A stretch of 28,058 nucleotides of DNA, from positions 1-28,058 of the forward strand of contig JBAXKK010000027.1 of NCBI GenBank assembly GCA_037137395.1, written 5' to 3'. Positions 21,001 through 27,000 of this stretch are shown here, one piece after another (position 1 is the stretch's first letter; each line of letters starts with the position of its first letter). This stretch comes from Elusimicrobiota bacterium (GTDB taxonomy: Bacteria; Elusimicrobiota; Elusimicrobia; Elusimicrobiales; UBA9959). Position numbers: made by a program.

Positions 21001-24000
21001 CAGCCGCTCTATGAAGTTGAGGTTTATCACAAAGACGGCTCCACCCGCTGGCTGGAAGTGACAGGGACTCCCCTGCGCGATCCGGCCGGAAAAGTAACAG
21101 GGGTCGAGGGACTCGCCCACGATATAACCGGGCATAAACAGCTTGAGCAGGGAATGAGGGAATCCAGAGCGCTTATCGCGGCAGTAGTGGAAAATGTCCC
21201 GTTAATGATCTTTCTCAAAGAAGCGAAGCATCTGCGGTTCGCCATATTCAACCGGGCGGGAGAAGAACTGCTGGGTTACGACCGTAAAGATCTGCTCGGC
21301 AAGAACGATCTGGATTTATTCCCGCCCGAGCAGGCCGCTTTCTTTATAGCCAAAGACCGCGAAGCGCTTAAGGCGGAAACGGGCGTTTTGGACATCCCGG
21401 AAGAGCCTATAATGACCGCCAAGAAGGGGCAAAGGCTTCTTCACACCCGGAAGGTTTGCATCCGGGGAGCTGACGGCACCACCAAATATCTGCTGGGGAT
21501 CTCCGAGGATATAACCGAACGCAGACACACGGAAAAACTCTTAATTGAAAGCGAGGAAACTCTTCGCAAGATCTTTGACACCGCCAAAGACGCCATATTC
21601 ATTAAAGACCTCAACGGCGTATATGTTAAAGCCAACAAGTACTGCGCCGGGCTTTTCGGCCTGACGCCAGAGCAAATCGAAGGCAAGAGTGATTTTGACC
21701 TGATGCCACGGGAATTAGCCCGGCAACTTTACGATTCTGACAGGGCGCTTTTAAAAACCGGCGGCAGCGTGACAGCTGATAACGATATATCCACGGTAAG
21801 CGGCGGGGTCCGCGTTTTCAACTCCGTAAAAACGGCGCTTTATGACGCGGACGGCCGCGTAACCGGGCTGCTTGGCGTGTCACGGGATATGACGGAACTT
21901 AAAAAACTGCAGACCCAGCTGATAGAGATTAAAGCCATGGAAGCCGCCGGCAGAATAACGCGGCCCGCGGCCCACGATTTCAACAACATCCTTAGCGCCA
22001 TCAACGGCTACGCGACGCTTATTATTGAGAATTTAAAAGCCGGGAACCCCGTGAAGTCAGAGATGGAACAGATATTGAACGCCGTTAAGCGGGCGACGGC
22101 GATAACAAACCGCCTTCAGACTTATGGTTCTGAAACCGGAAAACCGAAGGAATAATGATTTATAGGTTTTTTCCGTAGGTGCCGGAAACGGTCCGTTTTA
22201 TCGCTGCGACCGTCTTACCCGGAAGCTTCAGACTCTCAAGAAAAGGCGCGCCCGCGCGGCCCATGGCGGCCGCTATGGCCGCCAGCCGCGGCATAGCCCC
22301 GGCCAGTCCGGCGGCCCCGGAGGGCCAGATGAATTCTTTGCTGAAGAACCTGTAGGCATCAAGATTGCGCAGTATGGTGAAAGCTTCAGTCGGATCCTTT
22401 TCTTCAAGCATCTTAAAAAGTTCATTGCGCAGGCGCTCCCGCGACAGCAGGGCGGGCATGGCCTCCTTCACGCATTTATCGGCCAGCTCCTCGGTCTCTT
22501 CTTCTAACTGCCAGTCGAAACGCCCGGCGAAACGCGCCGCCCGGAACAAGCGCGTGGGATCGTCCGTAAAACTGTCAGTGTGAAGAACCCGTATGCGCCT
22601 GGCTTTTATGTCGGCAAGGCCGCCGAACGGATCCGCCACCGACCCGAAACTGTCCGGCAATATAGCTACAGCCATGGCGTTAACGCTGAAGTCCCGACGC
22701 TTGAGGTCTTCCTGGACCGAACCCGCGGCGGAAACATCGGGGAGGGCTGCCGGCGCGGCATAAGTCTCTCTTCTGAATTGCGCCAGGTCCACCCTCCGCC
22801 CATTCTCCAGAAAAACCCTGATCGTAAGAAATTTGCCGAATCTGGTGAACGAGCCGCCGTGCTGTTTAACCAGCCCCTCGGCGACAGGGCTGGCGTCTCC
22901 GCTGAGCAAAAAATCTATATCGGCCCCGGCGCGGCCCATTGACCAGTCACGCACGCAGCCCCCGACGGCGTAACTCTCCAGACCGAGCGCGGAGGCAAGC
23001 GCTCCCATCTCTTTTATAAGGGGCAGATCGTTTAAAGGGGTTATATTCATAATATAATAAGCGGCCACAACCTCGCTACGCGCTAGGCGTTTTCTTCACA
23101 AACGGCAGATCTGAGGTATTGGACTCTTCCAGAGTCTTTAGCAGATTTTTCACCCGGGCTATGGCGTCGTTATCCGCCACTATAGCCCGCGTAGCTTCCA
23201 GGGCCGAATCCCTGGCCGGAGCGGTTCCGGAGTAAGGCAGGGAAAAAGGCAGATCCTGCAGCCTGGCGAACGCGGGCTGGATCTTCGCGTGCTTAAAGCC
23301 CCTCTCCCCGGCCATAAAGATCATGACATCAGTCTCTTCTTCTATGTCGCGGTCGCGAAGGAGCAGATCAGAGAGCGGCGCCGCGCCGAAATAATATTGC
23401 GGCTCAAAAACAAACACCCCCTCCTCCACGAACGACTCCCTAAGAACCTCGTAATCCTGACGCATCTTTTCCATCCACTTTTCTTCTTCCTTCCGGTAAC
23501 TTTCGGGCATCACGAAGACAAGCAGATCTCTTTCGGGGTCTATATAAATAAATGTCTCCTCGCAGGAGAAAACATTTGAGCAGGCGGGGCACATGATCAG
23601 GTCGAACTCGCCGCTCATGATAGCCTCTTTCAGATTCTGGTCATGATCGCCGCGTATAACGGTCCAGAAATCGGCGTCAAAACGCTCCTTGCAGGACGGA
23701 CATTCAGCTTTAAAAACGCCTTTTATGGACATAGGTTTAAGATACGTCTATTGCTATAGGCTATAAGGGCGCCGCGCCCGCCATAAGCCATATGCTTTTA
23801 AGGAGTTCCTTAAAAACTGGAACACAATTTTTTCGCGTATGGCTTAAAGCATACGGCCTATGGCGCGGCTGGAACAGCCGCATATGGCAATCTTTAAATT
23901 ATCCCCACCTGCTTATTAAACTGCTCTATAAGCTTATCCCATTCGGTTACCTGGGCGAAAGTCTCGTCCCAGAACGCGGGATCCCAGAGTTTTCTGAGAT

Positions 24001-27000
24001 CTTCAGAGGTGCGCCCCTGCTGTTCCACCCAGGTGAAATATTTAAGGTTGTGGACGGCTTTGCGGTCGTAGTAATTAAGCTCGCGCGTATAATCTATGGT
24101 AGCCCCTTTTAGGCGGCGCTCCATGTCCACCAAAGCGTTCTCCCTGGTATAAGGGCCATGCTCTTTATTAAGTTCCTCAAGCCTGGAACCGTAAAGGTCC
24201 ATGGAATCGGTGAAGACCGTAAAGATCACGTCGTTAGAATCCATCTCATAATATTTGGCGGTCTTTATGGCGCTGAGCATATTGGAAACTCCGGAAATAC
24301 CCAGAAGCCCGAGCTGGTCAAGAACCTCTTTTTTCACGCCCTGCTCGGCCAGAACCTTTTTGCCGGCCGGGTCATTGAAGAGGCGGATCAGGCGCATGCA
24401 GGCCTCATCGTCTATAGCTGTGACGATATCGGTGTTCCTGACATTGTGCACCCAGGGGATATGCTTGTCGCCTATGCCCTCAATGCGGTGCTCGCCGAAG
24501 CCGTTCATCAGTATGGTGGGGCATTGCAGGGCCTCGGAGGCAGTTATCTTCATGCCGGGGAATTTCTTTTTGAGGTAGTCGCCGGCGGCGATGGTTCCGG
24601 CCGAACCGGTGGCGGAAGTGAAGGCCGCGAGCCTGGATCCGGGTTTTTTTATGGAGTTAAACACCTCTTCTATCGCGGAAGCGGTCACATGGTAATGCCA
24701 CACTGGGTTGCCGAATTCCTCAAACTGGTTGAATACCACGCAATCTTTGCGGGTCTTTTTTATTTCCCAGCACTTGTCATATATTTCTTTGACGTTTGAT
24801 TCGGTGCCGGGGGTGGCGATAACTTCGGCGCCGATGGATTTAAGCCAGGTAAAGCGTTCTTTTGACATGCCCTCCGGAAGGATAGCCACGGCCGCCGTGC
24901 CAAGCAGTGCGGAATCGAAAGCGCCGCCGCGGCAATAGTTGCCTGTGGAGGGCCACACGGCTTTCTGCCTGGCAGGATCGAATTCTCCGGTCACAAGGCG
25001 GGGCGCCAGGCAGCCGAAGGCGGCGCCGACCTTGTGCGCGCCGGTGGGGAAGTATTTGCCCACGATACCGATAACACGCGCCTTAATGCCGGTTATAGCC
25101 TCGGGCAGCTCCAGATAATTCACGCCGCCGTAGAGGCCGGTCTTACTGTCATTATGCCAGTTGATCCTGAAAAGATTGAGGGGATTGATGTCTTTTAGCG
25201 CGACTGTCTTTAAATCTTTTTTCACTTTATCCGGGATCCGGGCCGGATCCTTCATCTGGGCGAAAGTGGGTATCACTATTTTTCTTTTCCGGCAAAGTTC
25301 CGCGGTTCTTTTAAGGACTTCCTGGTTTATCTTAAGTTTTATCATAAAGAAACCCTCCGGGATTTTCAAGCAAATCTACATACCTATTATACAAATAAAG
25401 AAAGCGGCGGAAGGCTGCCCGCCGCGTTTGCGGGGCAAAAAAATACCCCCTTTTTAATAAAAAAGAGGGGTATTTTTGCAAGACACGGTCTTCCGTTTAG
25501 TTAACAACAACGCTGGGAGTGTGACCTTTATTGATAAAATCATCCTTTGAAATTGCGCCCAGGCGCCTAAAGCCCCATTTCAGGTAGAACTTCAGTGAAG
25601 TCCCTTCGTCCGTGATAACCTCATATCCTTTGTCAGGATCGTTCAGGTTTTTATTATCCGCTGCGGGTGACCTGCCCAGGTCGCTCTCGGCGAAAGACAT
25701 TTCATATCCCGGAGCGGCGGAGAACATGAATTCCTTCCCGCCTCTGAAGCCGTCAAACCAGCCGGGGACTGCCCTGAACAAATCAACCTTAATGGCAACC
25801 TTTTCTCCAGCATACTCTTTAGCCCATGCGTCGTTCACTTTGAATGAGTATTTCCCACCGGCGTACGAAAACTCACCGATGCTTAACCCGTTCTCATCCG
25901 GTCGTGTGGCAATTTTATACTGAGGGGTCAGCTCAAAAAGTGTGTCATAACCACCGAGCCTTCTCTCATTATATTTATACCCGGCCTCTCTCACATAAAG
26001 GCTGCTCCAGGGGCCCTCAAGACAGATATCAAAAGTCTCTCTTTCCCAGGGTAAAAGTTTGCGCTGCTTAATATTAAGCCGAACCGTTTCCCGCCAGGTC
26101 TGGCCGGGGCGTTCGTAGCAGTGCTGCACGGGGACCTGAGTGTTATTGGGCCCCGGCTGCATGGTGGTATGACACTCCTGCACATATTCAGTGCTCTGCA
26201 GCCGCACCCTTTCGCTCATTATCTCAATATCGCTGGGCCCGTACGAAAAACTGGCGCAGTCGCGGGTGTACCGGGTGTAGCCCGGATACCTATCAGCGGC
26301 GGGCAGGACGACATCCGCGCTGACGGCCTCGGTTATTGCGGCCTTAACATCCACACCTTGGTCGAAGTTCACTTCGGCGCCGGCATAAGGTGCTAAAAAC
26401 CCTATGGAAATAATTGCGGAAATAATGCTTTTTTTCATGTTAATTTGTCCCCCTTATTATTCAACCAGCTCATTTTAAGCCCGGGATTTACATAGGCATA
26501 TTGTAGCAAATAGATTCACGCGTAAAAACACCCCCGAACATGCAAAACCGCGGAGCCACGGTCAGGCGATCTTCACGCCTTTCCCCACCCAGATAAAAGC
26601 GGCGGGGAGGATCAGGCACTGACAATGATCGCTAAGGATGGAGCGTTCCTCCGGCAGGATAGAAACTATGCCGTTGGTCCAGCTCACATAGCGTATGTGC
26701 TCCGCGTCAAGCCATTCATATACCCTTGGCCCGACTCGTGGCATTATTGTCCACACCACAGCCTTATCCCAGGGAATCTCCCCGGCGTCGGATGAAAATT
26801 TTATCTCAGGTATCTTTTTAGCTAACGAATCCATGGAGCCTCCATTAACAAACTATTGCCATAAGGGCGCGGCGCCCGCCATAAGCCGTAAGCTATAGGC
26901 AGAAAAACCCCTCAGGCTGATCGATGCACCCAAATCTTTGATCGCGGACTGTACCCCGAATTCTGTCCAGCGTCTTACGACGCCTGGAGGATCATTTATC

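Follow-up and report, generated by a model that had tools for sequence, protein, structure and literature searches.

A fold-type-II PLP enzyme of 483 residues (PLP483), encoded in the 28,058-nucleotide stretch of DNA that we analysed (the window), is associated, in environmental bacteria, with the anaerobic pathway of uric-acid breakdown; selenium genes are missing from many of these bacteria. The reductive urate/2,8-dioxopurine pathway was solved in gut bacteria in 2025, its steps having been demonstrated in E. coli and C. sporogenes, and was described as selenium-dependent (Li et al., bioRxiv 10.1101/2025.05.19.654654, PMC12507026; Liu et al., bioRxiv 10.1101/2025.04.24.650524). PLP483 probably performs a step that is missing from this published pathway. 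Our preferred reading, to which we give slightly less than an even chance, is a variant route that is ended by a threonine-synthase-like (ThrC-like) ammonia-lyase and in which PLP483 carries out a different step.

The PLP483 gene is intact, its translation running stop-free for 483 residues, and the motifs upstream of it suggest that it probably has its own promoter (Table 1). A search for RNA holders of the gene listed none. Its neighbours in the window, encoding CpXC, a tRNA nucleotidyltransferase and RecG, have no relation to the urate pathway. The protein belongs to PF00291 (57 bits, gathering score 35), falls far under every CysK cut-off (TIGR01139: 103 bits, cut-off 351) and gave no match to the DpaL/YgeX models NF006058 and TIGR03528 at E≤0.001; the source labels include 'cysteine synthase'. 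The predicted model (pLDDT 93) matches solved structures with Z scores of 33–37, the top Foldseek and VIA matches being the O-acetylserine sulfhydrylase CysK, cystathionine beta-synthase and beta-cyanoalanine synthase group, while ESM Atlas returned only unnamed PALP clusters. The match to CysK-type enzymes covers approximately residues 23–416, well beyond the residues 70–325 to which an earlier note on this DNA had confined it. PLP483 shares with this group the PLP lysine, the Asn loop, the Gln, the GxG phosphate loop and Ser351, but EGIGD replaces the QGIGA of CysK, and a true CysK, paired with CysE, is encoded elsewhere in the genome under study (G000; 98.9% complete, 7.7% contaminated). 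With DpaL/YgeX it has in common the fold type and the pathway neighbourhood, but STGNY occupies the place of their TDGNH motif, and PLP483 coexists with 2,3-diaminopropionate (DAP) lyases.

Table 1. Features of the PLP483 gene and protein in the window, and the gene for its ThrC-like partner on another contig.
Feature	Position	Strand	Description
PLP483 gene	23894..25345	(-)	483-aa fold-type-II PLP enzyme; CysK/CBS-like core plus C-terminal helical extension
RBS GGAGG	25354-25358	(-)	8 nt upstream of PLP483 ATG
TATAAT box	25386-25391	(-)	about 40 nt upstream of PLP483 ATG
Lys105, predicted PLP Schiff-base lysine	25031..25033	(-)	67/67 aligned family members; aligns with CysK PLP lysine motif
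Ser133-Thr134-Gly135-Asn136 substrate loop	24938..24949	(-)	STGN (TSGN in CysK); motif comparison, family alignment
Glu289-Gly-Ile-Gly-Asp293	24467..24481	(-)	Asp293 at the position of the catalytic Asp232 in Fn1055
C-terminal helical extension, residues ~390-483	23897..24178	(-)	Tyr436, Trp439 invariant; mostly beyond range aligned to solved structures
ThrC-like gene	G000 C101:3647-4885		threonine-synthase-like PLP partner of PLP483

One of the equally ranked best structural matches (Z 36.4, rmsd 2.7, 314 aligned residues) is Fn1055, the cysteine (hydroxyl) lyase of Fusobacterium nucleatum, which converts cysteine and water to serine and H2S (PDB 5b53, 5b55 and 5z5c) and in which Asp232 has a catalytic role (PMC12940168); our literature search found no primary source on this enzyme. 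The HRIEGI-x-D segment places Asp293 of PLP483 on Asp232 and Gln207 on Gln147, the four-residue tag offset in the structure numbering having been checked on Thr73, Ser74 and Gln147. Asp293 is invariant in all 67 aligned family members. PLP483 nevertheless differs from Fn1055 in its invariant Glu182, Cys275, Lys294 and His295, in having STGN rather than TSGN and some 150 more residues, and in its purine-pathway context, and the 24% identity between the two is of a level that does not transfer substrate.

The presence in G000 of the reductive urate enzymes credited to it was confirmed, though not for every enzyme above its cut-off. SsnA (502 bits, TIGR03314 cut-off 455.5), YgeY (556 bits, cut-off 321.5), a hydantoinase above the TIGR02033 cut-off and three XDH large subunits were found, together with a carbamate kinase-like gene. 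The XdhD-like subunit (C2:68864-71185) is 40% identical to E. coli XdhD and keeps the equivalent of E606; it lies under the whole-protein cut-off of TIGR03313 because it is a split form. YgeW and YgfK, by contrast, do not reach their cut-offs: the former is a short, 337-residue carbamoyltransferase (239 of 500 bits), and beside SsnA lies a PreT/PreA-like reductase, the YgfK score being 151 of 835 bits. Close homologs of both proteins occupy cluster positions elsewhere. G000 departs further from the gut pathway in its two extra PLP enzymes, in the scattering of its genes over at least five contigs, and in its lack of YgeX, SelD and YqeC. Searches of G000 found no SelD, SelA, YqeC, DAP lyase, homoserine dehydrogenase or ThrB. 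YgeX/DpaL was above cut-off in none of five genomes searched, G000 included; the reported lack of YgeX and of homoserine enzymes is borne out.

The association of PLP483 with the pathway was evident in two sets of genomes, although these counts draw on related and partly incomplete genomes such that p-values overstate it. Among 121 genomes of the class Elusimicrobia, 24 hold both PLP483 and SsnA, none PLP483 only, two SsnA only (both 81% complete) and 95 neither, and the co-occurrence persists even where the genes are unlinked. In a second phylum, PLP483 is present in 44 of 48 SsnA genomes and in 12 of 273 others. Three of the four exceptions contain a CysK-like protein of 350 residues, which in two of them is encoded within or close to the cluster; it passes the CysK cut-off and carries the PLP483 motifs STGN, PGxES, [EQ]CP and [EQ]GIGD (each in 117–120 of 120 homologs); STGN and GIGD are missing from six other CysK-like paralogs. 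A quick-method tree of the 483- and 350-residue forms gave an unresolved fork. Outside Elusimicrobia, a pathway gene lies within 6 kb of PLP483 homologs in 53 of 69 loci and the ThrC-like gene near them in 33, extending the earlier counts of 21 and 16 of 48; completeness figures do not extend to genomes reached through loci. Direct neighbours of PLP483 include the ThrC-like gene (24 of the 37 loci that have one) and YgeW (17 of 26), whereas XDH (2 of 36) and maturation genes (3 of 18) seldom adjoin it.

The partner gene had been called an orphan, yet a carbamate kinase gene lies directly upstream of it. Threonine synthases are its best matches in sequence and, by Foldseek, in structure (33–35% identity), and the protein passes both TIGR00260 (236 against 167 bits) and NF006050 (311 against 303). 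It differs from them in invariant NR, GDG and TxADS motifs, in four N-terminal cysteines, and in the replacement by Thr or Leu, in all 20 proteins compared, of the Arg in the threonine-synthase motif NPxRxEGQKT, which we take to be the phosphate-binding residue; a literature search for the role of this Arg yielded no primary source. An invariant Arg203 nearby could have taken over anion binding. The host, moreover, lacks the homoserine dehydrogenase and kinase; among five genomes the former occurs in one (not G000) and ThrB above cut-off in none. The ThrC-like gene alternates with DAP lyases. In the genomes with PLP483 (set 1), 2 hold both, 4 the lyase only, 42 the ThrC-like gene only and 2 neither; the corresponding numbers in the second phylum (set 2) are 2, 7, 35 and 4, and the overall figures are 4, 10, 77 and 6. 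The ThrC-like gene is a better candidate substitute for YgeX than PLP483, and the proposal that one of the two PLP enzymes stands in for YgeX is supported. Members of the ThrC-like family are also encoded in 16 small genomes of Elusimicrobia that lack SsnA and PLP483, and the family is therefore not pathway-specific.

On our preferred reading, XdhD (its ligand most likely sulfur, not selenium), a YgfK/PreTA-like reductase, SsnA and hydantoinase would act on urate, and the carbamoyltransferase with carbamate kinase, followed by YgeY, would complete its conversion to DAP. The ThrC-like enzyme is somewhat more likely than not to be the terminal ammonia-lyase, which yields pyruvate and is interchangeable with lyases of the DpaL/YgeX family. 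PLP catalysis requires a free alpha-amino group, and the pathway substrate of PLP483 can therefore be only albizziin or DAP. From either, PLP483 may, we suggest tentatively, form aminoacrylate, to which water or sulfide would be added to yield serine or cysteine, with Asp293 as acid/base by analogy with Fn1055; the step would either branch off to salvage the C3 skeleton or supply the lyase at the end of the route. Gene distribution and conserved residues were observed directly, whereas each reaction is inferred, the steps as far as DAP by homology with those demonstrated in E. coli and C. sporogenes. Several findings argue against this scheme. Four genomes hold both the ThrC-like gene and a DAP lyase, the ThrC-like protein exceeds two threonine-synthase cut-offs and its family extends to genomes without SsnA, G000 already has CysE and CysK, and two plasmid homologs of PLP483 (43–44% identical) sit outside any urate cluster. 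In addition, L substrates are the rule for enzymes of the CysK and ThrC types, which counts against the scheme if the intermediates are R (D) configured as proposed; the source leaves the configuration open.

The selenium trait bears on a different role for PLP483, in which it would replace the selenium supply by converting L-cysteine to serine and H2S that arms a Mo=S hydroxylase, the ThrC-like enzyme replacing YgeX. We regard this as unlikely, albeit the best of the alternatives. An Asp of the Fn1055 type is in place, and TauE/SafE sulfur exporters are found near both plasmid homologs. SelD is absent from all 121 Elusimicrobia genomes by profile search (formerly 0 of 31), and the selenium-free reading therefore holds for that class, but not for the PLP483 family as a whole, since 26 of 50 genomes from other phyla have SelD. 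YqeC, however, was found in just 3 of 20 tested other-phylum genomes with SelD and in none of five genomes searched (SelD and YqeC control matches were obtained in E. coli), such that 41 of 44 tested PLP483 genomes are missing SelD or YqeC. The single-contig chromosome G019 encodes a TIGR03311 'selenium-dependent' XDH above cut-off and neither SelD nor YqeC. PLP483 is also missing from all 19 enteric clusters that carry both YqeB and YqeC, but these come from nearly one lineage; the YqeB-centred metagenome scan for exclusion from the selenium trait returned mostly enteric or short loci and was informative only in part. Against such a role, PLP483 is kept alongside selenium-cofactor genes, in the same cluster at two loci (L037 and L172) and in the same genome in three cases (G009, G022 and G269), and it seldom adjoins XDH or maturation genes. 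Mo=S is, besides, normally supplied by NifS-type desulfurases.

That PLP483 is itself the DAP ammonia-lyase replacing YgeX, as the title of the earlier note had it, is improbable. Its acidic Glu182, Glu289 and Asp293 would fit a beta-ammonium substrate, its presence with SsnA is near-universal, RidA and pyruvate carboxylase are encoded near the homolog on a Bosea plasmid, and a DAP lyase is missing from 44 of the 50 PLP483 genomes. PLP483 does not exclude such lyases, however: at L037 and L053 it shares an operon with a lyase whose catalytic residues are intact, and it is present in all nine set 2 genomes with SsnA and a lyase. The six set 1 lyases tested keep K77, D120, H123 and D189, which we take to be catalytic, Asp120 presumably being the base for the D isomer. 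The pattern of exclusion belongs instead to the ThrC-like gene. This retention of PLP483 beside lyases with Asp120 also weighs against a further, doubtful alternative, in which PLP483 would racemise D-DAP or D-albizziin for an L-specific lyase or YgeY. The R configuration proposed for the intermediates and the close linkage to the ThrC-like gene, which persists in a pair that has diverged together (L126–L129), are consistent with a racemase, but our literature search found no CysK-type precedent; a candidate precedent in the cysteate pathway was rejected, the cysteate racemase CuyB being PLP-independent. Least probable is ordinary housekeeping, the pair being an aberrant cysteine synthase and a threonine synthase that happen to be encoded close to purine genes, for which the source labels and the cut-offs passed by the ThrC-like protein and the 350-residue form can be cited, but against which stand the co-occurrence with unlinked SsnA, the separate CysE–CysK pair and lack of homoserine enzymes in G000, and the low CysK score of PLP483.

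It is an even question whether the common environmental form of anaerobic urate breakdown is selenium-free and ends differently, with a repurposed ThrC-fold DAP ammonia-lyase and a new CysK-like family (the 483- and 350-residue forms) whose reaction would be a novel one, making serine or cysteine directly from DAP or albizziin, or feeding sulfide to a sulfur form of an enzyme family regarded as selenium-requiring. Our literature search, which covered the main texts of Li et al. and Liu et al., found no paper describing the pair. In Li et al. (PMC12507026), PF00291 is the criterion for 'YgeX', and at that level both PLP enzymes would count as YgeX; Pfam-level scoring and the labels 'cysteine synthase' and 'threonine synthase' hide these families in published surveys. 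In the work of Liu et al., every gut strain that had the cluster also had SelD and YqeBC, unlike G000, and active-site residues did not explain the contribution of selenium (bioRxiv 10.1101/2025.04.24.650524). The 26 of 121 Elusimicrobia genomes that have SsnA and no SelD, together with G019, offer probable natural sulfur-form enzymes with which this contribution can be tested directly, and selenium-free parts could matter for engineered urate-lowering probiotics. A check for serine dehydratase with PF03313 gave a candidate match of 163 bits in G000; the score was 256 bits in three others.

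PLP483, a 483-residue fold-type II PLP enzyme, and its threonine-synthase-like partner (ThrC-like) belong to a real, widespread and apparently undescribed variant of the reductive urate pathway. No paper describing the pair was found in a search that left subscription papers and bioRxiv supplements outside, and the terms 'threonine synthase' and 'cysteine synthase' do not occur in the main text of Liu et al. (bioRxiv 10.1101/2025.04.24.650524). Li et al. (bioRxiv 10.1101/2025.05.19.654654; PMC12507026) place Elusimicrobiota among the holders of the pathway marker SsnA, and score YgeX by PF00291. 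PLP483 is a PF00291 member yet falls far under the CysK, CBS and SbnA profile cut-offs, and models of the 2,3-diaminopropionate (DAP) lyase family (DpaL/YgeX) gave no match to it. Its homologs are abundant: all 8000 scored candidates match, and the best 120 of these are at least 70% identical, many carrying an Elusimicrobia label. Ahead of the gene itself, inspection of the sequence shows a TATAAT box followed by a ribosome-binding site, and the GC and GC3 of the gene resemble those of the other genes of the genome (G000). It lies among unrelated neighbours encoding a CpXC protein, a tRNA nucleotidyltransferase, RecG and an unknown secreted protein. The N-terminus of this secreted-looking protein, encoded upstream of PLP483, resembles that of a protein encoded after the ThrC-like gene in the relative G162. 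Elsewhere in the window a GAF-PAS sensor, in which no ATPase domain was found, stops just past a weak HisKA match and adjoins an OmpR-type regulator. A PorV-like and caspase-domain protein and a large repeat protein with a FlgD/T9SS tail are also encoded in this Elusimicrobia genome.

Positions of the features discussed
Feature	Location	Strand	Remark
PLP483	window 23894-25345	minus	intact ORF, 483 aa
Secreted-looking protein	window 25497-26438		
GAF-PAS sensor	window 20188-22155		
PorV-like, caspase-domain and repeat proteins	window 4224-11586		
ThrC-like gene	G000:C101:3647-4885		
Third XDH set (L010)	G000:C10:667-13793		
Protein with similar N-terminus (G162)	L105:9591-10601		
F420-type LLM reductase (G439)	L132:2414-3424		
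Plasmid homologs of PLP483	L236:13959-15458, L237:14070-15404		Rhizobium and Bosea

Searches with E. coli K-12 reference proteins located the pathway genes of G000 on several contigs: XDH subunits on C2 and C10 (the subunit at C2:68864 keeping the equivalent of XdhD Glu606), SsnA on C2 adjoining a PreT/PreA-like reductase, YgeY on C61 separated by a single gene from a short carbamoyltransferase, the hydantoinase on C63, and on C101 a carbamate kinase-like gene followed directly by the ThrC-like gene. A true CysE-CysK pair is present on C14. None of SelD, SelA, YqeC, DAP lyase, homoserine dehydrogenase or ThrB was found in G000, which is 98.9% complete and 7.7% contaminated; the same gene pattern is seen in three family relatives with about 1% contamination. 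These scattered genes are joined in relatives, with YgeW-like, carbamate kinase and ThrC-like genes together in G144, PLP483, the reductase and SsnA together in G140, and all but SsnA in the joined set at locus L025. The third XDH set of G000, accompanied by FdrA-like, nitrilase-family and cyclase-family genes, may serve a different heterocycle pathway.

PLP483 is closely associated with this pathway. Among 80 PLP483 loci kept out of 589 matches, a pathway gene lies within 6 kb in 53 of the 69 non-Elusimicrobia loci and in 3 of the 11 from Elusimicrobia. Across 121 genomes of the class Elusimicrobia that are at least 80% complete, PLP483 and SsnA occur together in 24, PLP483 alone in none and SsnA alone in two (both 81% complete). 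The genomes of the 50 longest-contig loci among the 69 (set 1) all have an SsnA-like match, over the cut-off in 23. In a second phylum, that of G046 and probably Acidobacteriota to judge from gene layouts and source labels (set 2, 321 genomes), PLP483 is present in 44 of 48 SsnA genomes versus 12 of 273 others, with five SsnA candidates scored per genome and a threshold of 240 bits that we chose once background deaminases had been seen at 222-233 bits. Three of those 12 carry an SsnA-like gene of 225-236 bits on the same contig. Of the four set 2 genomes that have SsnA but not PLP483, three hold a 350-residue protein with the PLP483 motifs, so that 47 of the 48 have one form or the other; the shorter protein passes or resembles the CysK model, and in G356 its gene lies between ygeY and XDH.

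Several further observations concern these clusters and the wider family. In G439 an F420-type LLM reductase directly follows SsnA, an arrangement noted for Chloroflexota (Li et al.), and a second, aspartate-carbamoyltransferase-like gene recurs in clusters L029, L041, L046, L051, L074 and L127. Homologs 43-44% identical to PLP483 lie outside urate clusters on plasmids of cultured Rhizobium and Bosea, near TauE/SafE exporters and M20 peptidases and, in Bosea, also RidA. A full-length homolog with intact motifs (P0124) is recorded for the eukaryote Aduncisulcus paluster. Four full-length relatives (P0125, P0145, P0155 and P0167) have degraded active-site motifs, one without the PLP lysine, and are possibly catalytically dead paralogs or subunits.

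The title of the earlier note had PLP483 itself replacing YgeX. That assignment is probably wrong, because PLP483 shares an operon at L037 and L053, where no ThrC-like gene was found, with a DAP lyase that exceeds the NF006058 cut-off, and is kept in all nine set 2 genomes with both SsnA and the lyase. Residues K77, D120, H123 and D189, which we take to be catalytic in DAP lyases, are retained in all six set 1 lyases. In set 1 both lyase and ThrC-like genes are present in 2 genomes, the lyase only in 4, the ThrC-like gene only in 42 and neither in 2 (p = 0.0009, inflated by kinship); the corresponding figures for the 48 SsnA genomes of set 2 are 2, 7, 35 and 4 (p = 0.0001, likewise inflated), counting one partial lyase match at a contig end. 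Pooled, with G046 entered once, they are 4, 10, 77 and 6. In three of the four set 2 genomes with neither, a divergent ThrC-like gene immediately follows PLP483. Since the ThrC-like gene and the lyase alternate while PLP483 stays, the ThrC-like gene is the exchangeable part; YgeX is probably replaced by the ThrC-like partner, with PLP483 adding a step.

The ThrC-like protein has the predicted fold of threonine synthase and passes two ThrC cut-offs, but in 20 of 20 sequences Thr or Leu stands at an Arg of the solved threonine synthases that presumably binds phosphate. Judging by its gene content, G000 lacks the usual route to homoserine. Counting against pathway specificity, the ThrC-like gene occurs in 16 small class genomes without SsnA or PLP483. 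It lies away from threonine genes in the four inspected, in two of them one gene from a carboxylase-like pair (identity read off sequence starts), and homoserine dehydrogenase is present in one of three tested. The enzyme may be a general ammonia-lyase recruited into the urate pathway. In these genomes without the pathway (L098-L101) the ThrC-like protein has a changed motif near residue 203.

The PLP483 model (pLDDT 93) matches CysK, CBS, beta-cyanoalanine synthase and the Fusobacterium cysteine (hydroxyl) lyase Fn1055 (PDB 5b53) with Z of 33-37, its C-terminal extension lying mostly outside the range aligned to solved structures. When segment 260-325 was searched alone, Fn1055 (E 0.003) was the one match in the solved sequences. 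Asp293 falls on position 236 of the 5b53 chain; a four-residue offset, which agrees with Thr73, Ser74 and Gln147 as well, makes this position Asp232. Asp232 is described as catalytic in the replacement of Cys to Ser with release of H2S (review, PMC12940168). Lys105, Ser133, Thr134, Glu182, Cys275, Asp293, Lys294 and His295 are invariant in all 67 family members compared. PLP chemistry requires a free alpha-amino group. Within the pathway only albizziin (the route of Li et al.) or DAP therefore suits PLP483, and a commentary by Percudani leaves ureido order and stereochemistry open. We tentatively propose, at somewhat less than even confidence, that PLP483 would carry out a beta-replacement on albizziin or DAP to yield serine or cysteine. 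The main rival is that it supplies sulfide for the Mo enzyme; gene adjacency favours the catabolic end rather than cofactor maturation. A lyase or a racemase ranks after sulfide supply; the cysteate racemase CuyB is PLP-independent (PMC11193023).

The selenium-free reading of the earlier note is well supported for the class Elusimicrobia: SelD was found in none of the 121 class genomes, with positive controls detected. We infer from gene absence alone that the enzymes work with sulfur; selenium dependence has been demonstrated in C. sporogenes (Liu et al.). Outside the class, SelD is present in 26 of 50 PLP483 genomes, and YqeC in 3 of 20 SelD holders tested. In the single-contig chromosome G019 the cluster XDH exceeds the 'selenium-dependent' TIGR03311 cut-off, and neither SelD nor YqeC was found there. 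The clusters of L037, L172 and G269 keep both PLP483 and selenium-cofactor genes, and a YqeB-centred scan of 80 loci returned 19 enteric clusters with YgeX and neither PLP gene. In G010, G012, G030, G031, G035, G036, G037 and G042, mostly without YqeC, the SelD matches lie inside open frames of 744-756 residues, which suggests a fused SelD.
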